Positions 13,634 through 35,490 of a stretch of 35,490 nucleotides of DNA are shown piece after piece (the first letter of the stretch is position 1; every line of letters begins with the position of its first letter). The DNA is from a virus. Its lineage: Duplodnaviria; Caudoviricetes. The DNA lies in the IMG/VR virus record IMGVR_UViG_3300028586_000746, positions 1-35,490 of that record; one strand, given 5' to 3'. Position numbers and translations under genes: made by a program. Below the pieces are notes generated by a model. That model searched no databases. It was not told the DNA's origin and worked only from the letters and a program-made list of their open reading frames with translations.

Positions 13634-14737
13634 ATGAATATAATTTCAATTTTCAATAATAAAGGTGGAGTTGGAAAATCAACGTTAACCTACCATTTAG
13701 GCTCAGCATTAAGTGAGATGGGAAAGAAAGTTTTATTAGTTGATTTAGATCCGCAGTCAAATTTAACTTTATATGGCCTTTCCGAACCTGAATTGGAATC
13801 AATTTGGGAAAAGGAAGATGCTTTTATAGATGATTTCTCTTCAGCAAAAAAATCTATGTCGCCAAAGGATTTCGAAAACTATCAAAAAAGCTTTCACTCG
13901 ATACACTATCTTCTTAAACCAGTTGAGGACGGTGAGTCGGATGAAACTCACCTGGCTGCTCCGGTCATGCTTAATGATAATCTCGGACTTTTGCCGGGGC
14001 GTCTTACATTGCACATGTTTGAAAGCAAAATAGCTAAACAATGGAGTGAAGCATTTTTAGGTGAACCGCAAGCAATTAGAACTGTTACAGCCATAAGAAA
14101 AAAATGTGAGGACTATGCAAAGGAATTTAATTTTGAAATAGTTCTGATAGACACATCACCAAGTTTAAGTGCCTTAAATAAGGTTATAATATCGACATCG
14201 GATTGTTTCATAATCCCCTGCGCCCCAGATATGTTTTCAGACTATGGGATAAGAAACATAGGCAACTCTTTAAAGGTTTGGAGCAAAGAACTGCAAACTA
14301 TGATCTCTTTATTAAATGATACTAAGAGAGATTATTTCCCCAAAAAATTTGTCAAACTATTAGGCTATACAATTTATAACGCAAGAAAACGTTCAGATGC
14401 TCAGAACGGTTTGAAAATAGCGGCGGCCCATGCTAATCATGCAAAAAAACTTCCAGAAACCATTAAGAATTTCGTTCCAGAAGAATGCTATGATTTTTTA
14501 GCTGATGATGCTATATTTAAATCTATCGGTGAAAACGCTCTCATCCATAGCCATAACACATATCCTGCAAGCTCTCAAAAATATAAGCTCCCTATGTGGA
14601 AAGTTCCGGAAAGCCCTATGCTTGATGATAGTGATATTGGTACTATTAAAGCATCTGCAAAAGATTATAGAGCGACGAGAGATAGCTATATTAGTTTTGC
14701 GGAGGATGTATTAAAAAGATTGGAGGCGTTGAAATGA
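13634..14737 (+). CDS. ParA/MinD-family (deviant Walker A) ATPase, 367 aa
   Basis: NNKGGVGKST, VLLVDLDPQSNLT, IVLIDTSPSL; AT-rich cargo. Confidence 0.9.
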   Translation: MNIISIFNNKGGVGKSTLTYHLGSALSEMGKKVLLVDLDPQSNLTLYGLSEPELESIWEKEDAFIDDFSSAKKSMSPKDFENYQKSFHSIHYLLKPVEDGESDETHLAAPVMLNDNLGLLPGRLTLHMFESKIAKQWSEAFLGEPQAIRTVTAIRKKCEDYAKEFNFEIVLIDTSPSLSALNKVIISTSDCFIIPCAPDMFSDYGIRNIGNSLKVWSKELQTMISLLNDTKRDYFPKKFVKLLGYTIYNARKRSDAQNGLKIAAAHANHAKKLPETIKNFVPEECYDFLADDAIFKSIGENALIHSHNTYPASSQKYKLPMWKVPESPMLDDSDIGTIKASAKDYRATRDSYISFAEDVLKRLEALK

Positions 14738-15423
14738 ATGACTTAAACGCACCACATATAAATAATTGCATTGACCATATAAACAATAACATTCATCTTT
14801 ATGAGCTATTTAATGACAAAATAATATCCATAATAACTCGTGATAAAAGATTAAAGAGTCTGATTCATAGCTTTAAAAATAGATTTAAAGATGAGCAGCA
14901 CCTACGGAAGAAAATAATAAGAAAGAACTTAGAGGATCTAGAGCGCCCTGTTGAAGAACAGGTTGGTCCAATTACACCTCAAAATATCATGAATCGCATT
15001 ACAGACATTTGCGGTGTTAGGGTTATACATCTTTATCAAGCCCAATTTGACGGCATTCATCAAGCCATAATGGATTATGTAGGACAGGGCGAGATATTTT
15101 TGTACGAACAACCCAAAGCATACACTTGGGATCCGGAGTACAGAGAGTCTTTCAGCGCATTAGGTTTGAACTCTATACTGCGCGGGAGTTTATACACAAG
15201 CGTTCATTATGTAGTCAGACCTAGGGCGGATAGTGATGTTACTTGTGAAATACAAGTTAGAACATTATTTGAAGAGGCCTGGGGCGAGATTGATCACACT
15301 TTAAATTATCCGACTGAAACTAATAATGTTGCAGTCCAAGAGCAGTTAAAAGTTTTAGCTAGAATTGTAGGTGCAGGAACAAGATTATCTAATGCCATTT
15401 TTAAGACATCTGAAGCAAGCTAG
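14734..15423 (+). CDS. RelA/SpoT-domain small alarmone synthetase-like nucleotidyltransferase, 229 aa
   Basis: RFKDEQHLRKKIIRK, TDICGVRV, YTSVHY, EIQVRTLFEEAWGEIDHTLNY; ATGA overlap with the ATPase gene. Confidence 0.88.
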   Translation: MNDLNAPHINNCIDHINNNIHLYELFNDKIISIITRDKRLKSLIHSFKNRFKDEQHLRKKIIRKNLEDLERPVEEQVGPITPQNIMNRITDICGVRVIHLYQAQFDGIHQAIMDYVGQGEIFLYEQPKAYTWDPEYRESFSALGLNSILRGSLYTSVHYVVRPRADSDVTCEIQVRTLFEEAWGEIDHTLNYPTETNNVAVQEQLKVLARIVGAGTRLSNAIFKTSEAS

Positions 15424-21161: not shown

Positions 21162-22925
21162 ATGAACATGACACCGACAACCACCATCAGCGATCCGCGC
21201 CGTCAGGCCGCGCTGCTTTACTGGCAGGGATATTCCGTGCGCCAGATTGCGGAGACGCTCAAACAGAAAACGCCGACCGTGCAGAGCTGGAAGCTGCGCG
21301 ACGCGTGGGACGACGTTGCGCCCATCAGTCGCGTGGAGTTCAGCCTGGAGGCGCGGCTTACGCAGCTCATTCTTAAGGACGTCAAGGGGGGAAGTGACTA
21401 CAAGGAGATCGACCTGCTCGGCCGACAGATTGAGCGGCTGGCCCGCGTGGAGCGCTACCGCAGCTCGGGCAACGAGGCGGATTTAAATCCCAACGTGCGC
21501 AACCGCAACCGGGGCGAGCGCCAGCCGGTCGTGAAAAACGAGTTCAGCGAGGAGCAGACCGCCAGGCTGACCGGGCTGTTTATGGACGCCTGCTTTGAGT
21601 ACCAGCTCAACTGGCACCGCGCCGGGCTGGCGCACCGCATCCGCAACATCCTCAAGTCGCGCCAGATTGGGGCCACGTTCTACTTTGCCCGCGAGGCGCT
21701 GATTGATGCGCTGACCACCGGCCGCAACCAGATATTTCTCTCCGCCAGCAAGGCGCAGGCGCACGTCTTTAAAAACTACATCATCGACTTTGCCCGGCAG
21801 GTTGACGTTGACCTGAAGGGCGATCCGATTGTGCTGCCGAACGGCGCCCGCCTGATATTTCTCGGCACCAACGTGCGCACCGCGCAGAGCTACACCGGCA
21901 ACCTGTACCTAGATGAATATTTCTGGATACCGAAGTTTCAGGAGCTGCGCAAGGTGGCCAGCGGCATGTCGCTGCACAAGAAGTGGCGCACCACCTATTT
22001 TTCCACCCCGTCGAGCCTGTCGCACAGCGCCTATCCGTTCTGGTCGGGCGCGCTGTTTAACAAGGGGCGCAGCAGTAAGGAAGACCGGATCGAAATTGAC
22101 CTGTCGCACTCGCACCTGGCGAAAGGCGCGCTGTGCGACGACGGCCAGTGGCGCCAGATTGTCACGGTCGAGGACGCGCTGACCGGCGGCTGTAACCTGT
22201 TTGACATTAACCAGCTGCAGCTTGAGTACGGCCCGTCGGAGTACGACAACCTGCTGATGTGCGAGTTTGTGGACGACGAGGCGAGCGTGTTCCCGTTCAA
22301 AGAGCTGCAGACCTGCATGATCGACAGCCTGGAGGAGTGGGAAGACTTCAATCCGTACGCCCTGCGCCCGTTTGAGTACCGGCCGGTGTGGATTGGTTAC
22401 GATCCGTCACACACCGGGGACAGCGCGGGCTGCGCCGTAATTGCGCCGCCGGTCGTGGCGGGCGGCAAGTTTCGCGTGCTGGAGCGCCATCAGTGGCGCG
22501 GCATGGACTTCGCCGCGCAGGCGAAATCGATTGAGGAGCTGACGCGCAAGTACACCGTGGAGTATATCGGCGTGGACGCCACCGGCATCGGCCAGGGCGT
22601 TTTTCAGCTGGTCCGCCAGTTCTTCCCTGCCGCACGGGAAATCCGCTATTCGCCCGAGGTGAAGACCGCGATGGTGCTGAAGGCAAAGGACACCATCGGC
22701 AGCGGCCGCCTGGAGTACGACGCCGGGCACACCGACATCACGCAGTCGTTTATGGCCATTCGCAAGACCATGACCGCCAGCGGCAACCGCTCCACCTATG
22801 AGGCCAGCCGCAGCGAGGACGCCAGCCACGCCGACGTCGCCTGGGCGATTATGCACGCCCTACTCAATGAACCGCTGACCGCCGCCAGCGGCGGCGCCAA
22901 CCCTTCAATTCTGGAATTTTACTGA
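21162..22925 (+). CDS. P: Terminase large (ATPase) subunit P
   Basis: LKSRQIGAT Walker A, LYLDEYFW Walker B, GYDPS nuclease motif, HADVAWA; start could be 21156, 21162 or 21168. Confidence 0.94.
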   Translation: MNMTPTTTISDPRRQAALLYWQGYSVRQIAETLKQKTPTVQSWKLRDAWDDVAPISRVEFSLEARLTQLILKDVKGGSDYKEIDLLGRQIERLARVERYRSSGNEADLNPNVRNRNRGERQPVVKNEFSEEQTARLTGLFMDACFEYQLNWHRAGLAHRIRNILKSRQIGATFYFAREALIDALTTGRNQIFLSASKAQAHVFKNYIIDFARQVDVDLKGDPIVLPNGARLIFLGTNVRTAQSYTGNLYLDEYFWIPKFQELRKVASGMSLHKKWRTTYFSTPSSLSHSAYPFWSGALFNKGRSSKEDRIEIDLSHSHLAKGALCDDGQWRQIVTVEDALTGGCNLFDINQLQLEYGPSEYDNLLMCEFVDDEASVFPFKELQTCMIDSLEEWEDFNPYALRPFEYRPVWIGYDPSHTGDSAGCAVIAPPVVAGGKFRVLERHQWRGMDFAAQAKSIEELTRKYTVEYIGVDATGIGQGVFQLVRQFFPAAREIRYSPEVKTAMVLKAKDTIGSGRLEYDAGHTDITQSFMAIRKTMTASGNRSTYEASRSEDASHADVAWAIMHALLNEPLTAASGGANPSILEFY

Positions 22926-23965
22926 TGAGCAAACGCAGCCGGAAGGCATACAAAGCACAACCCCAGTCCGCACACCCCGTCGCGCCGCAGCCGGTCGAGG
23001 CGTTCACCTTCGGCGAGCCGACGCCGGTCATGGATAAGCGCGACATTCTGGATTACGCGGAGTGCATCGGCAACGGCCGCTGGTACGAGCCGCCGGTCAG
23101 TTTTCACGGGCTGGCCAAGAGCCTGCGATCGGCCGTTCATCACAGCTCGCCGATTTACGTGAAGCGCAATATTCTGGCCTCAACGTTTATCCCCCACCCG
23201 ATAATGAGCCAGCAGGAGTTCAGCAAGTTCGCGCTGGATTACCTGGTGTTTGGCAACGCCTTTGCCGAGCTGCGCCGCAATGGCCTCGGCAGGCCGCTCC
23301 GGCTGGAGACCACCCCCGCCAAGTTTACCCGCAAGGGGGTTGAGGATGGCGTGTACTGGTTCGTGAACGACTGGAAGGAGCCGCACGAGTTTGCGGCCGG
23401 CAGCGTGTTCCACCTTATCGAACCGGACATTAATCAGGAGCTGTACGGCCTGCCGGAATACCTTAGCGCGCTTAACTCCGCCTGGCTGAATGAGGCGGCG
23501 ACGCTGTTTCGCCGCAAGTATTACCAGAACGGGGCGCACGCGGGTTATATCCTCTACATGACCGACGCGGCGCAGAGCAGCAGCGACGTGGATCGGATGC
23601 GTCAGGCAATGCGCGACACTAAAGGCCTGGGCAATTTCCGCAACCTGTTTATGTACGCCCCGAACGGCAAGCCGGACGGCATCAAAATCCTGCCGCTCAG
23701 CGAGGTGGCCACAAAGGATGATTTCTTTAACATCAAAAAATCCAGCCGGGACGATTTGCTAAGCGCGCACCGTGTGCCGCCTCAGATGATGGGGATTATC
23801 CCGGATAACTCAGGCGGCTTCGGGGATGTGGTGAAGGCGGCGCAGGTTTTTGTAAGAAACGAACTGACACCTCTGCAGGAGCGCCTGAAAGAGTTGAACA
23901 ACTGGTTGGGCGAGGATGTGATCGCTTTCAGACCATATTCATTAGAGATAAATATGTCAAACTAA
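22925..23965 (+). CDS. Q: Portal protein Q (PBSX family)
   Basis: EAFTFGEP, YGLPEY, FRRKYYQNGAHAG, AHRVPPQMMG. Confidence 0.95.
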   Translation: MSKRSRKAYKAQPQSAHPVAPQPVEAFTFGEPTPVMDKRDILDYAECIGNGRWYEPPVSFHGLAKSLRSAVHHSSPIYVKRNILASTFIPHPIMSQQEFSKFALDYLVFGNAFAELRRNGLGRPLRLETTPAKFTRKGVEDGVYWFVNDWKEPHEFAAGSVFHLIEPDINQELYGLPEYLSALNSAWLNEAATLFRRKYYQNGAHAGYILYMTDAAQSSSDVDRMRQAMRDTKGLGNFRNLFMYAPNGKPDGIKILPLSEVATKDDFFNIKKSSRDDLLSAHRVPPQMMGIIPDNSGGFGDVVKAAQVFVRNELTPLQERLKELNNWLGEDVIAFRPYSLEINMSN

Positions 23966-24115: not shown

Positions 24116-24264
24116 AGTGTTTATTTATGCCAACCCTCGAATAAGATTAGCGCTAAATATTAGCGCTAGCTCATCAACGACAGTCATTAAACTCAAAAAA
24201 TTTCTTCACATCAAATCATAGAATCTCAATAAAACCAAACGGATGCGGATCTTATTCATCCATA

Positions 24265-25254
24265 TTAAGAAACCCTGCTCAGTGCTACGCTTACATCCAT
24301 AGCCATACTTGTTATTATTTTCCAATCAAGTGGCCATTCAGCTTCAACCGCACTTTTTTTACGCCTAATCAACCAATAGACAAATATTATTACGCTCTGC
24401 ATATAGAACTTGTTTTTTACAGACTTCTCTTTAATAACATCAACAAGGTATGAATTACCTGCAAGAAACCGTAACAAATCTTCTTCAAGCCTATCATTAA
24501 TTAAATGCTTAAAGGCATCCAAAATAATAATTGTAGAATTTAGCTTAATAGGATCGAGGCCAATTACTTCGATAAAAATTGAGTCTAGAGTTGATTCAAC
24601 ATCCGAAACTTCTTTAGACTCTGTCTTTTTTACAACATCTAAGAAAAATTCATCAGCTGTTTCAATAAATGCCATTGTTTTAGCAACCGTACGAGCAACA
24701 TCCGGTTCGACTAAGGTTTTCTTTTTATATATAGCATCATGTGTTAATTCCGCATAAGCATGCTGAAGTAAAGAGCGAACTTGAACTTCACAAGGTGTAT
24801 TTTCTTTTATTACAACTTTATCAGCAACAATAGCTTGGCAATTTCTTATTATAAAATGATGTGATTGGTAGGTGAAAAGCATAGGGGATAAAATACGTTC
24901 TTCGTTATAATTTCTACATTGTATCGCATTCCAGCCCATGGTCTCAGAGACATGCATAATAACATCGCAAACTTTCTCTGCATCCGTCTGGAGCATCACA
25001 ACAAAACGCACACCCACCTTATCTTCAATATCATCGTAAGGATCCTGATAGTTCTTATTACGATAAAAAGCTTTGTCAATAAGGGAATTGACGTCCTTTA
25101 CACGGTGTTCCACCGGAATTTTAAGAAAATCTTTAAGATCAATATTTAGGTCAGTTCGAAGAGATAAAGATATTGAATCCGAAATAAGCTGCCCCCATGC
25201 ATTATACATGGTTTTTTCAGCACACCAGCGTTCACGGAATTCAATCTCATTCAT
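24265..25254 (-). CDS. RelA/SpoT-domain small alarmone synthetase-like protein with C-terminal extension, 329 aa
   Basis: RVKDVNSLIDK, EDKVGVRF, YQSHHF, EVQVRSLLQHAYAELTHDAIY; TAATG coupling to the upstream gene. Confidence 0.88.
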   Translation of the reverse strand: MNEIEFRERWCAEKTMYNAWGQLISDSISLSLRTDLNIDLKDFLKIPVEHRVKDVNSLIDKAFYRNKNYQDPYDDIEDKVGVRFVVMLQTDAEKVCDVIMHVSETMGWNAIQCRNYNEERILSPMLFTYQSHHFIIRNCQAIVADKVVIKENTPCEVQVRSLLQHAYAELTHDAIYKKKTLVEPDVARTVAKTMAFIETADEFFLDVVKKTESKEVSDVESTLDSIFIEVIGLDPIKLNSTIIILDAFKHLINDRLEEDLLRFLAGNSYLVDVIKEKSVKNKFYMQSVIIFVYWLIRRKKSAVEAEWPLDWKIITSMAMDVSVALSRVS

Positions 25255-26342
25255 TATTGGTCTACAATCTCATCTTTAACAATAATTTTCGTCCAAGTAG
25301 ATTTTTTCCCATTTGTATCAGGTTCCCCTATTACTGTTTCAATAGTGACAAACTCTTCAAATATCTCAGACGGTGCGCTAATACGAATATTCTTACTGAA
25401 TTTTACACGTCTATTTTTCAATTTGCTAGTTATATACTCTATGTCTTTAATAAAAGGGGCAACTTGAAAATTAGCATCCTCAAGATGATTTCTAAAGTTA
25501 TCAATATCATCTGTGGACATATATGCGCCAGCAAATGCCATGGGGTCTATTTTTTGAGATTTTCCTGATTTGAGTTGCGCATAGAGAACGTTGTGCAAAT
25601 CACTACGCTCCTCGTTCGGAATATTCATTTTATTAATAAAACCACACGCAAGCTCAAAGTATGCTTTAGTTGTTCTGGCGCTTGATAATGGGTAATCGCA
25701 CCCTAAAAATGTTTGATAAAAATACTGTGCGGCTGCTTTCCCGTCAGATTTGTCAATCTGATAATCTGATATGTGAACTATCCACTTTTGCGCAAGAGAG
25801 CTATCATTGTCTAAACCTTCTCTTTTAAAAAATCCTGCCGATTTGTAAAGCCTTGTTGATGGTGTAAGTAGGAGTTCCTTAACATGCTTGAGGGATATTA
25901 TTCCAGTACTCGCATCCAGTTTTTTTTCATAACCACTATATAGATCAGCCTTTATAATACCAACAAAGGGTAATTTATTATACTGATATGTGGCGCTGAA
26001 AATGACAATTATGCCGCCAGATATTCCTCTGCGTGTCTGAGCCTTAGACAAATTCTTAGCAATTTCATAGCTGGTAGTAATGAAATTTTTTTCATCGCAG
26101 TCACATAGATTATCAATATAAAATGGCGTACCCCCACTTTTATTGTCTGTGATTACCATCTCAACTGCAGATGAGTCATAGCCGAGAGAGTTATAAATAC
26201 GCTGCTTAAAGTCGCTCAATGCGTCATTATCGAACTTAATGAGTTCTGTACCTTTACCAGGAGGAATTTCTTTACCATCCTCTCCACGGGGAAATACTTG
26301 ATGGATGGCAATTTTATCAATATTCAACTGTACAAAATTCAT
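25254..26342 (-). CDS. NdpA/YejK-like (37-kDa nucleoid-associated) family protein, 362 aa
   Basis: IDKIAIHQV start, ISGGIIVI, GIIKAD, RLYKSAGF, AQYFYQTFLGC...RTTKAYF pattern; start re-assigned to MNFVQL. Confidence 0.65.
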   Translation of the reverse strand: MNFVQLNIDKIAIHQVFPRGEDGKEIPPGKGTELIKFDNDALSDFKQRIYNSLGYDSSAVEMVITDNKSGGTPFYIDNLCDCDEKNFITTSYEIAKNLSKAQTRRGISGGIIVIFSATYQYNKLPFVGIIKADLYSGYEKKLDASTGIISLKHVKELLLTPSTRLYKSAGFFKREGLDNDSSLAQKWIVHISDYQIDKSDGKAAAQYFYQTFLGCDYPLSSARTTKAYFELACGFINKMNIPNEERSDLHNVLYAQLKSGKSQKIDPMAFAGAYMSTDDIDNFRNHLEDANFQVAPFIKDIEYITSKLKNRRVKFSKNIRISAPSEIFEEFVTIETVIGEPDTNGKKSTWTKIIVKDEIVDQ

Positions 26343-26352
26343 AAATAGGCTC

Positions 26353-26814
26353 TTAAATATCAGCAGGTTTTTGAGGAGCTTCAGAGGCAGCGCTATAAAT
26401 TTGCGCCCAATTATCGGTATCTTGTTCCCAAACGGACTGGTAATTTTTAAAAAGTTCTCGCACTCTAGGTAAATGCTCTTCACCATCTTTTAAAATTCTC
26501 AGTTCATTTTCAATACGATACAAGCCAAATAACGTCGATTTTTGCCGCACGTAGAGTTTTTTATAATCAAAAACGACCATCCAGCCATTTACGAGCGTAA
26601 GTACTAAGCCTAGGCAAAGTGCTATATTCTTTTGAGCAACAGTATGTCCAGGCAAGTCTAAACCTACCGTAACAGTAATAGCTGCACTAAAAGCAATAGA
26701 TCCCGCAGTAATCCATTGAAAAAAAAGCTTGTTTGATCTGCACTTAGGTTTGAGCTTTATGATCTTTTCACTGATCATTTCAAGCAGTATCGTTCTCTCT
26801 GATTTATTTGTCAT
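26353..26814 (-). CDS. SLATT/DUF4231-like two-TM membrane protein, 153 aa
   Basis: Two TM helices (FFQWITAGSIAFSAAITVTVGL; IALCLGLVLTLVNGWMVVF) followed by DYKKLYVRQKSTLFGLYRIENEL helix. Confidence 0.65.
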   Translation of the reverse strand: MTNKSERTILLEMISEKIIKLKPKCRSNKLFFQWITAGSIAFSAAITVTVGLDLPGHTVAQKNIALCLGLVLTLVNGWMVVFDYKKLYVRQKSTLFGLYRIENELRILKDGEEHLPRVRELFKNYQSVWEQDTDNWAQIYSAASEAPQKPADI

Positions 26815-26827
26815 AGCGTCCTGAATG

Positions 26828-26950
26828 AATATAAAACTTCCGTTGACTGGGTCAATATGAAAACGATTATGCCATTGATTTCAAATGATTATTTAAATTT
26901 CCCAGATGCGCATGAAGCTTAATCATCACTTCCGCTAATGAAACTGTCAA
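26828..26950 (-). promoter_or_regulatory. Two candidate sigma70 promoters for the SLATT-NdpA-SAS operon
   Basis: TTGACA-17bp-GATGAT (26950-26922) and TTGACC-16bp-TATATT (26855-26828). Confidence 0.45.
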
Positions 26951-27073
26951 TATTTATATCAGTAAATTCCTAAAAATCACCCTCATTTTGCTTATGACTT
27001 TATCTAAAATCCTCCTGTGCGCTTTCATTTTACTCAGCTCAGAGTACTTATGAACATACCTCCTCAGCGCGCA

Positions 27074-27092
27074 ATGCTATCCCCGCCACGCC
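27074..27092 (-). other. cos site (19-nt cohesive end)
   Basis: GGCGTGGCGGGGATAGCAT, close to the 186/P2 cos GGCG(T/A)GGCGGGGAAAGCA(T/C); flanked by ATGCA/CATG-rich tract. Confidence 0.88.
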
Positions 27093-27226
27093 TGCCCGCT
27101 TTATGCATCGCTTTTCATGCAACTGCATGCCCTGCCCGGAGCCTTGCCAGCACTGACGTTTAAAGCGATTTGTGATCCTGTCTGGATCATGCAAAACCAT
27201 GCACGCACATGCGCAGTCATCATATG

Positions 27227-27515: not shown

Positions 27516-29864
27516 TTAGGAATCGTAAACATTCGTATGGTTCGGATTAGTCTGAACGCTTATTTGTTGAGCAGGCTTCGTTGTTGAGTGCCTGGCCGCC
27601 AGCGCCTGGAAACGCTCCAGCGGTGACGGTTTTAAGGGCTTGCCTCTGTATAGCTGACCACGGCTGCCGCTCCAGTACGTTTGCCCTCCAATTTTGACAC
27701 CATGCCCACGCATCATGCGTGTTACTTCTCCGGCTGAAAGCCGCATACGTGAGATATCAAAGACAGTAGTTTGTAAGTTCTCCCCTGCTTCGTTGATTGT
27801 GGGCGGGCTCGTTGCTTTTTTATGAGTTGCGGGCTCTTTACTACGTATTCGCGACAGTAGTTTTCGCCGCTCTTTACGTGGTTGCGCCTTTGAAAAGTCG
27901 AATTCTGTACCTGGCTCATCGGCGGGCTTACCTGCTCCCGTACAGTTATTGACAGAACTCCAAGGGGACGCGGACGCGTCCCGAAGTTCAACACCCAAAT
28001 CAACGGCACGCTTCGGCACAATCTTCCACTGTGCGAGGCGGGTTAAAATCGGGGTATCTTCACCAACAGACGTGGCATAAACGCCCTTGATGCGCACAGT
28101 CTCCTCGCCGTACTCGTTGCAGTCTTCGCTTGCCTGATACCAGGTGCGCACGGCCAGCTCATCACGTTTCACGAATGGGCCACCCTGCGCGTTGACGTAT
28201 TCAGCCCACTGCCCGGCATCAGCGGCATCATGCACTGCTGCAAACTCAACACTCAGGCCATGAGCGGTTTCGCTGTCAGCCATGCGGCGCAGTTCACGAT
28301 AAACTGTTACCGGCGCACCACCGACAAACTGAAACTGGCGTATGTGCCAGCGCGCCGCCCAGGCAGAAACGGCCGGGGCGGTTTCTTTCAGCTCTTTGCC
28401 GCTTTCATCGTCCAGCTCGCCGTCGAGTGCATAGCCGTCGATGTTCTTTGAAATGTATTTAGCTACGTAACCAGTGGCGCTGCCTTTCTGCGGATCGATG
28501 GCTTCAGCGTGAAAGCGCGCTTTTCTGGCTTTGTCTGTGGTCAGCTCATGGCCATCTTTTTCAAAAGCGTAAGCCTGGATGATGCTGCGCACGCGCTGCA
28601 CATCTTCAGGGCGCATAAACATCAGCATATGCCAGTGCGGCGTGCCGTCATGGTGTGGCTCGGCAACACGAATGCCAAAGATGCGGATGTCTTCCCGGTG
28701 GAGCTTGGCGCGCACCTTCTGCCAGACGTTGCAAAGGTAACGCTGCGTTTCGGCCGGGCTGGCACCGTCCCATTTACGGTTACGGTGGCCGGTTTTGATT
28801 GTGGCGTGAAAGCGGGCTGGCGCCGTCAGCGTGTAGAACTCGCCAACAAATCCCATTTCATTGCAGATATTTTCAAAGCCACGGATGCGGGTCATCAACT
28901 CGCAGCGACGAATAGCCGGATTGGCCACGCTGCCGTCGTACTTCTCAATCAGGCTGATGCGGTTGCCATCCTCATCTTCAAGCTCCATGCCTTTGAGAAA
29001 CTCGCGGGTACGGCGCTTTTGCTCGCGCCATTCAGATACGGTCATGTTGCTGGCGTAGGGAGTATGTTTCTTGCTGACGTTGGCCAAGGCAATCTGCAGG
29101 TGTTCACGCCACGATGCAGCGACGCGGCGCAGGCGCCCTTTCCACCATTTTTCTGTCTGCATACGCATGATCGCCGGGGTGACTTCTTCCGGGTCAAAAA
29201 GACGTGATGTAACTTTATCCCACAGAGGCGGTGTCTGGTTCAGTTCGCGGGTGATGGTTGCGGCGGCCATATAAACACGGTGCGTATATTTATAATCTGA
29301 CTCATCGCTGGCCTGAGCATGGACCTGCACCATTTCCGCCAGGATAAAATTAGCAATATCGCCAGCCAGCAGATCCACATCTGCGCGAGCCATGTCAGGC
29401 AGCCGGTTATAACGCTTAATCAGCTCCCATAACATCGCTGCTGCATGAGCCGCACCTTGTGGTTTAGCCTGATTACCAGCAAGCATTGTTGCGATGCCGC
29501 GATTCATCTCATTAAGTCGGTATTGAGCGCTGACGCATTCAACTCGTGGCAATGTGCGCTCAACAAAGGTTTTTGCAAAGTACGCATTGGCACGGGCTAT
29601 GCCGTTTGTTTTTTCCAGCTCGCTGATACGCCGTTTTACATCGAGTTGCACGATCGAAGGTTGTACAGCCAGCAGCTGCTGCGCATGCGACAAAGCCGCA
29701 ATCATTTGATCGCGGCGACGCTGTTCGTCATAGGTAAGATAAGGACTGGCAATAGCTTCCCGTGGAATGTTCCACGGGTAAGCGTATTCTTGCTGGCTTT
29801 TAGTTTCAGATTTAGAGTGTCCTCTCTTATCATTTGAGAGAATGGACGATGCCTCAGAAACCAT
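27516..29864 (-). CDS. A: Rolling-circle replication initiator A (HUH endonuclease)
   Basis: FYTLTAPARFH, EPHHDGTPHWHML, GYVAKYISKNIDG. Confidence 0.95.
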   Translation of the reverse strand: MVSEASSILSNDKRGHSKSETKSQQEYAYPWNIPREAIASPYLTYDEQRRRDQMIAALSHAQQLLAVQPSIVQLDVKRRISELEKTNGIARANAYFAKTFVERTLPRVECVSAQYRLNEMNRGIATMLAGNQAKPQGAAHAAAMLWELIKRYNRLPDMARADVDLLAGDIANFILAEMVQVHAQASDESDYKYTHRVYMAAATITRELNQTPPLWDKVTSRLFDPEEVTPAIMRMQTEKWWKGRLRRVAASWREHLQIALANVSKKHTPYASNMTVSEWREQKRRTREFLKGMELEDEDGNRISLIEKYDGSVANPAIRRCELMTRIRGFENICNEMGFVGEFYTLTAPARFHATIKTGHRNRKWDGASPAETQRYLCNVWQKVRAKLHREDIRIFGIRVAEPHHDGTPHWHMLMFMRPEDVQRVRSIIQAYAFEKDGHELTTDKARKARFHAEAIDPQKGSATGYVAKYISKNIDGYALDGELDDESGKELKETAPAVSAWAARWHIRQFQFVGGAPVTVYRELRRMADSETAHGLSVEFAAVHDAADAGQWAEYVNAQGGPFVKRDELAVRTWYQASEDCNEYGEETVRIKGVYATSVGEDTPILTRLAQWKIVPKRAVDLGVELRDASASPWSSVNNCTGAGKPADEPGTEFDFSKAQPRKERRKLLSRIRSKEPATHKKATSPPTINEAGENLQTTVFDISRMRLSAGEVTRMMRGHGVKIGGQTYWSGSRGQLYRGKPLKPSPLERFQALAARHSTTKPAQQISVQTNPNHTNVYDS
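27942..27969 (-). other. Replication origin inside A (predicted nick between 27961 and 27960)
   Basis: GTCCCCTTG/GAGTTCTGTCAATAACTGT resembles P2 ori GCGCCTCG/GAGTCCTGTCAATAAC. Confidence 0.75.
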
Positions 29865-33510: not shown

Positions 33511-35490
33511 CTATATATTTAAGCCAATTAACTCAAGATAAAACAATTTACTCTTATCCTTATCTTTTAATATATGAGGTGGACACAGTCCGAGATCCCA
33601 CCGTCTATCCATATATGAAAGTAACTTAACACTCCTTTCTTTTATTTCGTTTGGACCCCATTCTAAAAACTCAGTTATTTCGTTTTCAGAAAAGCATCCA
33701 TATCTAAACCCTCGACTAATTTTTTCTTTAAATATCCTATTTGATAAAGATGAGTTTTTTCTAGTCGAAAGCGGCACTAAATTACCCAAAGCATGCCTAA
33801 ACTGTCTTTTTTCCCGAGTGTTATATTTTATAAACTTCTCAGTCCAATATGGATGACGAGCTCTTTGTGGGTAGATATGTTCGATCGTGATGTAATCTGA
33901 ATCTTTTTCTTTTTTACGGAAAATATCCCAATCAAGTTTTTCTCTTTGTGTTTTCGATTGAGATTGAAGATGATACTCATAATCATATAAAAAATATCTA
34001 ATTCCTTTCCAACTGTAAAAATCCGCATCTTTAAATTTTGTTTGAAAACTTAGAGCGATTGACTTTTGCAATTTATCAACACCATTTTTGAGATCGGTTA
34101 TAACCTCATCAATGCTATTGTTTACTTTGAGTTTTAACGCTAAATTTGAATAATTTACTCTTCCGAAATAATAGGGATCAGAAAGGAAAGTACCGATGAA
34201 TAACCCCCTTTCGATGGAAGCTATTAAAGTAGTAGTCTTACTCTTTTCGACTGGACGGTTTAACATCTCGAGAAGAAGTAACCTAGTATTTTTCCAAGTA
34301 GGAATTTTATTACATCTTGCAATCCATTCTTTTATATCATCAGGGTAGTTGCTTTCATATGGATTATGGATGTTATACCATGTCTGAACAGATTGCTTTA
34401 AACTACTAACATAATTTGCAATAAATTCCGCAGTGACTTCTCTAGTTCTAGATTTATCATTTATCGGTTTAGATGAAAATATATCGTCTATCAGTGCCCT
34501 TTTATGATCATGACTTGAATGAAAAGGTACAAGATCTATTACCAGTTCGCCATCAAAATATATATCTTCCTCTTCTGCTTCATTCTTTAACTCTCTAAAA
34601 TAGAGGTTGTAATGATGGTACAAAAATTCATCATCGTCCAAACGAACTTTCATCCCTTTCCCAAGAAAATGGTACATGGATTTCCAACACTCGTTAATAG
34701 AATGTCTCAATGAGTCTGGATAGAAATCTTCTGTAGGTAACTTTGTTGTAAGGTATATAAGTCTATTTTTTAACAATTCTAAATGTGATAAAACTTTACC
34801 TCTGTTATTCATAGTCTCAAATGCAACAAATGTGTCAATTTCGTCGTCTAGAGAGTATATATTAAAAAGAAAGTGTTGGGTTATTTTAGTGTAAACCTCT
34901 TCCACCTGACTTAATGAGAAATCTTTCATCTGGTCTAGGAAATAATCTTTTGCATTGCTCAAGTTTTGAGTATAAATCGTATTTTCAATTTCTCCTGAAG
35001 CTACTGATGGCTCACCAAATATAACTCTTTTTAGATATTCATAGCTTGGGTTATCTTTGTCATAGCCAAATAAATATGAGCGGGAAGCGTCAGCTGTTTT
35101 TCTTTCATATATGAATTTTTTTCTTATATCTTTTAAATCAGTGTAGTTTAATTGTATTTCGTCCCCCAGAGATTGGCATTTTTCAAGAATTGACTGAAGT
35201 AGAATTATTACAGTTGTGATACGTTGTTGCCCATCAACCACAAAATGAGGTGAGTAATGCCTTGATTTGATAATCCACTCATCCTCAACCCAAGACTCTA
35301 TGCTTTTACTAGGAACATCTTCAAGAGTCAAAACTCCTAAATAATGACTTTTACCTATCTCCAAATGCTGCAGGTCACTCCAAAATTCAGAGACTTCTTT
35401 TGTAGTCCATGCATAACCCCTCTGATAATCAGGGATTCTCAATAATCTCTCAGTAAATATTTTAGATAGTGAAGTTAAATTAGATTCCAA
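33511..35490 (-). CDS. DUF262 + DUF1524/HNH protein (GmrSD/SspE/BrxU-like), start at or beyond the window edge
   Basis: IPDYQRGYAW, VVDGQQRITT, FETMNNRG (DUF262); TIEHIYPQ...LGNLVPL...NSSLSN (HNH). Confidence 0.88.
   Translation of the reverse strand: MESNLTSLSKIFTERLLRIPDYQRGYAWTTKEVSEFWSDLQHLEIGKSHYLGVLTLEDVPSKSIESWVEDEWIIKSRHYSPHFVVDGQQRITTVIILLQSILEKCQSLGDEIQLNYTDLKDIRKKFIYERKTADASRSYLFGYDKDNPSYEYLKRVIFGEPSVASGEIENTIYTQNLSNAKDYFLDQMKDFSLSQVEEVYTKITQHFLFNIYSLDDEIDTFVAFETMNNRGKVLSHLELLKNRLIYLTTKLPTEDFYPDSLRHSINECWKSMYHFLGKGMKVRLDDDEFLYHHYNLYFRELKNEAEEEDIYFDGELVIDLVPFHSSHDHKRALIDDIFSSKPINDKSRTREVTAEFIANYVSSLKQSVQTWYNIHNPYESNYPDDIKEWIARCNKIPTWKNTRLLLLEMLNRPVEKSKTTTLIASIERGLFIGTFLSDPYYFGRVNYSNLALKLKVNNSIDEVITDLKNGVDKLQKSIALSFQTKFKDADFYSWKGIRYFLYDYEYHLQSQSKTQREKLDWDIFRKKEKDSDYITIEHIYPQRARHPYWTEKFIKYNTREKRQFRHALGNLVPLSTRKNSSLSNRIFKEKISRGFRYGCFSENEITEFLEWGPNEIKERSVKLLSYMDRRWDLGLCPPHILKDKDKSKLFYLELIGLNI

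Follow-up and report, generated by a model that had tools for sequence, protein, structure and literature searches.

In this work, a three-gene operon of a P2-like prophage was identified, by sequence comparison, as a member of the SLATT-bearing subset of type I PANGU, and the system is therefore already described and belongs to a published family (Li et al., 10.64898/2026.04.06.716658). We hypothesize, with a probability of about 0.8, that this operon, a homologue of type I PANGU preceded by a SLATT gene, acts through abortive infection to protect the lysogen. Three observations on the SLATT gene are new here: 17 SLATT-bearing rows form a clade without any loss of the gene, this SLATT family is seldom found away from PANGU, and the genes also occur in a second order. 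Clade, linkage and second order suggest a real third component with a putative role. The initial annotation had proposed an anti-phage operon whose small alarmone synthetase is under the control of a DNA-sensing YejK-like protein and may poison the cell through its product, and had not recognized it as a named system. The defence operon, the control by the sensor and the poisoning agree with the type I PANGU results in the main text of the preprint (10.64898/2026.04.06.716658), whereas the claim of novelty falls, as the YejK-like protein and the synthetase together are type I PANGU, and so does an autoinhibition of the CapRel type.

Prophage locus and operon structure

The window, i.e., the whole stretch of 35,490 nt that was analysed, is a P2-like prophage in which three AT-rich genes on the minus strand lie between the portal gene and gene A. 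The first gene encodes a SLATT-family protein with two transmembrane segments (153 aa; 26353..26814), an accessory gene of a type I PANGU subset. The second encodes a YejK/NA37-like nucleoid-associated protein homologous to Pag1A (362 aa, 40.9 kDa; 25254..26342), and the third a GRel-type small alarmone synthetase homologous to Pag1B (329 aa; 24265..25254). The longest open reading frame of the YejK-like gene starts at 26486, yet the alignments of its homologues begin at the ATG at 26342. The tight packing and AT-richness reported in the initial annotation are evident in the sequence, with a gap of 10 nt between the SLATT and YejK-like genes, a TAATG overlap between the YejK-like and synthetase genes, and GC contents of 0.377, 0.363 and 0.354, respectively, vs. 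0.539 for the whole window.

The left border of this interval is the portal gene (gpQ; 22925..23965, plus strand; Pfam Phage_portal, E 8e-21) and the right border is the replication gene A (27516..29864, minus strand; Pfam Phage_GPA, E 3e-124). A minus-strand sequence at 27074..27092, which we take to be the cos-like site of the P2-like prophage, has three mismatches to a 19-nt P2 cos motif, with 0.03 such sites expected by chance. The earlier placement of the operon between the portal gene and cos was thus correct, and the interval between gpA and the portal gene is a known defence hotspot of P2 (PMC9122126). Several contigs of one DNA run are common over the cos-proximal stretch (27060-27129) and split at about 27060-27067, a divergence that marks the edge of the hotspot.

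On the other hand, the promoters that had been ascribed to the genes themselves were not borne out. Promoter-like sites in the region did not exceed chance (15 vs. 13.5 ± 4.5 in shuffles), and the same applies to the candidates upstream of SLATT, among them a candidate sigma-70 promoter at 26828..26855 (minus strand) with 10 of 12 consensus matches. A pattern scan gave six terminator-like hairpins vs. 2.3 ± 1.6 in shuffles, including one downstream of the synthetase gene (24148..24168, minus strand). Two short contigs of one RNA run extend across gene junctions, but one contig was also found on a structural gene of the control stretch; since this leaves DNA carry-over possible, the RNA contigs were not used as evidence of expression.

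The same prophage holds other AT-rich cargo. A second synthetase module on the plus strand (13634-15423) consists of genes for a ParA-like ATPase of 367 aa (AAA_31, E 5e-30) and a RelA/SpoT protein of 229 aa, the latter a distant relative of the PANGU enzyme, and the module is similar to the ParA-effector (Tox-RelA) systems predicted in 10.64898/2026.10.19.760177. A GmrSD-like type IV restriction gene (659 aa; 33511-35490, minus strand), which is also AT-rich and adjoins the CI repressor gene, represents a third defence cargo.

Similarity of the sensor and the synthetase to type I PANGU

Type I PANGU consists of the YejK-like sensor Pag1A and the GRel toxSAS Pag1B, whose N-terminal domain is catalytic and whose C-terminal domain is the DMK domain, and versions from F. 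futtsuensis, P. aeruginosa and E. coli were tested (10.64898/2026.04.06.716658). According to the main text of that preprint, nucleoid-resident Pag1A is freed upon degradation of the genome by phage nucleases, and the freed sensor dismantles an inactive Pag1B tetramer to give an active 2:1 complex that makes pppGpp. Neither Pag1B by itself nor its catalytic domain in isolation is active, and Pag1A is an activator; defence needs both genes and is abolished by Y129A, and the T4 escape mutants involve EndoII (10.64898/2026.04.06.716658). A SLATT gene in several type I operons is stated there in two mentions of the main text, its role not being tested (10.64898/2026.04.06.716658).

The synthetase of the window matches Pfam RelA_SpoT above the cutoff (E 3.1e-14). 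It was predicted (pLDDT 88) to consist of a synthetase domain (about 1-211), with SAS1/SAS2 as the top fold matches, and an all-helical C-terminal domain equivalent to DMK (about 214-329). This agrees with the complete synthetase motifs and the C-terminal extension of over 100 aa that had been reported earlier, the helical domain having about 115 aa. The tested Pag1B was traced via one homologue with all seven residues named in the preprint: WP_028108748.1 of Ferrimonas futtsuensis, a protein included in the cluster, carries 7/7 of them at the published numbers. The window enzyme is 32% identical to WP_028108748.1 from end to end (340 columns, E 5e-54). Its Tyr129 is aligned to the catalytic G-loop Tyr129 of Pag1B, and the columns of the synthetase motifs are common to both. 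Furthermore, R51, K53, D78, R83, Y129, H133, E156, Q158, H165, E169 and H172 are identical in the window enzyme and Pag1B-Ff, and these 11 residues are invariant or nearly so across 100 unique homologues. The masses of the synthetase (38.2 kDa) and the sensor (40.9 kDa) are close to those given for the P. aeruginosa pair (37.5 and 40.6 kDa). A PDB sequence search with the enzyme returned generic synthetases only, and a single match, distant and partial, was found in an annotated phage collection.

The sensor matches Pfam NA37 above the cutoff (E 2.6e-13), and E. coli YejK (9BE2, E 9e-12) was the sole Foldseek match below E 0.001 to its model (pLDDT 85). A sequence search of the PDB gave no relative of the sensor under E 0.01, and the PANGU structure 9UFP did not come up as a match when the PDB copies were searched by sequence and fold with both proteins. 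As a proxy for the Ferrimonas sensor we used the nucleoid-associated protein of L089, which is closely related to the tested Ferrimonas system and has an enzyme 57% identical to the Ferrimonas one; the window sensor is 29% identical to this protein. Through the proxy, the basic pore residues K200, R203 and K204, with which Pag1A-Ff binds DNA, map to S199, K202 and A203, a segment modelled at pLDDT <50, where K202 is the sole basic match and K198 lies adjacent.

The agreement with type I PANGU thus covers gene order, protein sizes, full-length homology to Pag1B-Ff, Tyr129 and the two-domain enzyme. The window operon differs from the tested systems in that its enzyme occupies a branch of the enzyme tree separate from the Ferrimonas system and most of the named interface residues differ. 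Of the mutated interface residues of Pag1B-Ff, R306 alone is kept (R298), while R258 corresponds to D254 and H314 to E306. The C-terminal domain, which in type I PANGU is an acidic mimic of DNA, is also only mildly acidic here, with a net charge of -3 vs. -11 in Pag1B-Ff (family median, -3) and a pI of 5.44 vs. 4.72. These differences in interface and DNA-binding residues would be compatible with PANGU, given the pair-specific co-evolution that the preprint reports (10.64898/2026.04.06.716658). Another difference lies in the setting: the window operon is located in a P2 prophage hotspot and has a SLATT gene, and neither "prophage" nor "temperate" occurs in the main text of the preprint. In having SLATT it resembles the SLATT-bearing subset of Cluster 1 of the preprint, whose SLATT genes may be of the same family.

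Comparison with other known systems

In type II PANGU, as outlined in the preprint, a nucleoid-associated protein is combined with a transmembrane effector that has a DMK domain, and the adjacency of a YejK-like sensor and a membrane protein is shared with the window operon. However, the window operon includes a synthetase, and its membrane protein is a small SLATT that has no DMK domain. CapRel, a fused toxSAS (PDB 7ZTB), resembles the window enzyme in its RelA/SpoT catalytic fold and in being phage-borne defence, and the initial annotation had drawn on its autoinhibition by the C-terminal domain. This analogy was not upheld. CapRel is an autoinhibited sensor of phage protein that modifies tRNA, whereas GRel is described as an activator-dependent alarmone maker, in which the catalytic domain has no activity alone and the activator is bound by the C-terminal domain. 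CapRel matched the window enzyme only at fold rank 50 (TM 0.37), and the C-terminal domain of the window enzyme aligns with Pag1B's DMK domain, unlike an autoinhibitory antitoxin domain of the CapRel type. A toxSAS toxin-antitoxin or CapRel-like switch, in which the enzyme is kept inhibited, by its C-terminal domain or by the YejK-like protein, up to the binding of a phage protein, has in its favour this common fold and the mechanism of other toxSAS (10.64898/2026.04.06.716658), but it is very improbable given that the 32%-identical Pag1B is inactive alone or as a catalytic domain, that Pag1A activates it, and that the C-terminal domains align.

DRT10 (UG17 RT, ncRNA and SLATT) is similar in that SLATT is coupled to a nucleotide-polymerising enzyme (PMC12632851, 10.64898/2026.04.29.721553), and SLATT is reported to be required there (PMC12632851). 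Its enzyme and signal are different, and the activation of SLATT is speculative in that system as well. The DefensePredictor system DS-1 (NCBIfam NF053868) also uses a YejK-like domain in defence (PMC13092281); the window sensor differs from it, scoring 15.5 bits against the NF053868 cutoff of 330. PADLOC-DB 2.0, a library of 2023, gave weak partial matches only (2TM, E 3e-4; PDC-S33, E 5e-7) and none for the nucleoid-associated protein. In a search of open-access papers and bioRxiv main texts for tests of SLATT in PANGU, the PANGU preprint alone was relevant.

Distribution and inheritance of the SLATT gene

The SLATT protein was identified by NCBIfam SLATT_1 (72.6 bits, cutoff 41), while its match to Pfam DUF4231 remained under the cutoff (E 0.0016), and it has two hydrophobic 19-residue windows, at 34-52 (1.59) and 64-82 (2.28). 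The initial related-locus scans with single proteins yielded one locus each. In the 125 loci from four scans, which include some redundancy, the sensor gene lies directly upstream of the enzyme gene in 122, and in the remaining three the enzyme is at the edge of the locus. Of the enzyme-seeded loci, 102 were scorable, with at least 600 nt upstream of the sensor, at least 500 nt downstream of the enzyme and an unfragmented enzyme; SLATT was present in 16 of them (12/56 genome, 4/46 viral) and absent from 86. For the family as a whole this figure is probably too high, since the queries were drawn from the window's own clade. The question raised earlier, whether the trio or only the pair is conserved, thus has a divided answer: the pair is near-universal and the trio is confined to a minority of loci.

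When SLATT itself was the seed, all 8 loci from the genome and viral scans were trios, seven of them repeating earlier loci. In the metagenome scan the sensor gene was directly downstream in 27 of 28 loci, with the enzyme gene following in 24 and three loci stopping at a contig edge. SLATT matches occurred in 12 of 802 whole genomes (two families), and 12/12 lie beside sensor and enzyme, two of the 12 being centre genomes that had been chosen for carrying SLATT. The sole locus found without sensor or enzyme is L148 (179-625), in which a SLATT relative is followed by unrelated genes. In the loci inspected, SLATT is within about 20 nt of its neighbour gene or overlaps it. The linkage of SLATT to the other two genes in other genomes, on which the initial annotation had made its signalling model depend, is tight inside one clade and also where the genes stand in the second order. 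Besides the window, other P2-like phages, integrative islands of E. coli and a plasmid of Klebsiella carry the trio, which is thus a mobile cassette rather than one specific to P2.

On the enzyme tree, the SLATT label required two changes (118 rows) or three changes (120 rows, with L160 and L158 added) vs. 17-18 when shuffled, and three changes on the sensor tree. The trees are quick and have long branches. Seventeen rows with SLATT, one of them the window, group as a single clade in which no member lacks the gene (SH-aLRT 99 in the 120-row tree; the same split is weaker in the 118-row tree), and the enzymes of its members are about 42-79% identical to the window enzyme. The nearest relatives of the tested enzyme (L089, L126, L158) are without SLATT. 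A single origin of all SLATT-bearing rows was not rejected (AU p 0.13). By comparing SLATT-plus and SLATT-minus systems, no clearly separating alignment columns were found, with two weak ones in the enzyme, one in the sensor and few origins to compare.

The second gene order, sensor-enzyme-SLATT, is present as an intact operon in L160 (1421-3924) and L167, with SLATT overlapping the stop codon of the enzyme gene; in the text of the preprint we came across nothing on gene order. In L159 (2560-3980; E. coli) there is no sensor gene and the enzyme is split into 218 and 72 aa, while the SLATT, 32% identical to that of the window, is intact; at least 80% of this locus is covered by 5 of 5426 genomes. 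A sensor-less enzyme-SLATT system was considered for L159 and rejected, as comparison with L160 shows L159 to be a decayed copy of a sensor-enzyme-SLATT operon that is intact there.

Some loci hold further candidate defence genes. Extra synthetase-like ORFs adjoin the trio in L019/L064, L144 and L172, which hints at clusters of alarmone-based defence genes. In an Ancylobacter locus (L001, 6033-9856), the genes behind a two-gene PANGU, one long and one for a P-loop ATPase, have the look of a further defence operon.

Proposed mechanism and the role of SLATT

By homology to the tested system, the YejK-like dimer would clamp long chromosomal DNA and would be released when a lytic phage degrades the host genome. 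The released sensor may then bind the synthetase, inactive until then, at its C-terminal domain, and the resulting complex would convert ATP and GTP into AMP and pppGpp, so that transcription and translation halt. That pppGpp is the product is assumed from the 32% identity. SLATT is not needed for this core mechanism because it is absent from most members of the family. We infer from its linkage that SLATT may serve as an accessory membrane effector downstream of activation and thus as a second kill route, a part of the explanation to which we give slightly less than even odds. This role is favoured since the clade keeps SLATT without loss, both gene orders have it packed into the operon, and DRT10 requires a SLATT protein.

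Clustering on the tree is evidence of inheritance and not of function, and SLATT could instead be a passenger or a captured stand-alone defence gene that is co-inherited without mechanistic coupling. The common ancestry reflected in the clustering, including the single origin that was not rejected, is consistent with such a gene. Moreover, SLATT distances track those of its partners less (rho 0.62) than the sensor and enzyme distances track each other (0.93), SLATT remains intact in L159 despite the absent sensor and the split enzyme, and L148 has SLATT without the pair. Against a passenger, SLATT lies within about 20 nt of its neighbour or overlaps it in the loci inspected, is kept in the second order as well, and is inside a PANGU operon in each of the 12 matches in 802 genomes; we regard this explanation as possible but doubtful.

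The initial annotation had also proposed that the product of the synthetase signals to the membrane protein. The alarmone would then be mainly a second messenger gating SLATT pores as in CBASS, and SLATT would be required for defence; such a PANGU subtype of three parts, with (pp)pGpp from the sensor-activated GRel directly gating a SLATT membrane pore, appears unlikely to us. It would explain the absence of SLATT loss from 17 clade members with enzymes as far apart as about 42-79% identity to that of the window, as well as the joining of SLATT to the operon in two orders, and it parallels the requirement for SLATT in DRT10 (PMC12632851). The basic and aromatic residues that are invariant in SLATT beside the membrane helices (K22, K24, K29, K86, R90, K92, W129 and W136) could bind a polyanion, as judged within this SLATT family. 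Against gating by the alarmone, two-gene PANGU is reported to protect already, by direct toxicity, the active-site columns are alike in SLATT-plus and SLATT-minus enzymes, and no nucleotide-binding domain was detected in SLATT. If this subtype existed, the alarmone would be an immune second messenger and the SLATT effector family would have a defined ligand.

It is quite unlikely that SLATT is a regulator that, at the membrane, tethers or damps either the enzyme or the sensor and so limits self-activation, e.g., during prophage induction. A precedent exists in type II PANGU, where the sensor is described as binding a membrane protein directly, and the C-terminal domain of the enzyme is less acidic here than in Pag1B-Ff; for the rest, this role is conjecture. 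However, SLATT (153 aa, pI 9.1) is without an acidic domain like DMK, two-gene systems are reported to be non-toxic without SLATT, and SLATT-minus systems are common in viral contigs (42/46).

With abortive infection by the sensor-activated synthetase as the preferred explanation, and SLATT as its putative effector, the operon is an ordinary member of PANGU. Its value is that of a compact prophage-borne test case for the role of SLATT in type I PANGU. Material for this question comes from natural versions with two or three genes, from both gene orders and from a copy in decay. The locus also bears on what activates SLATT proteins at all.
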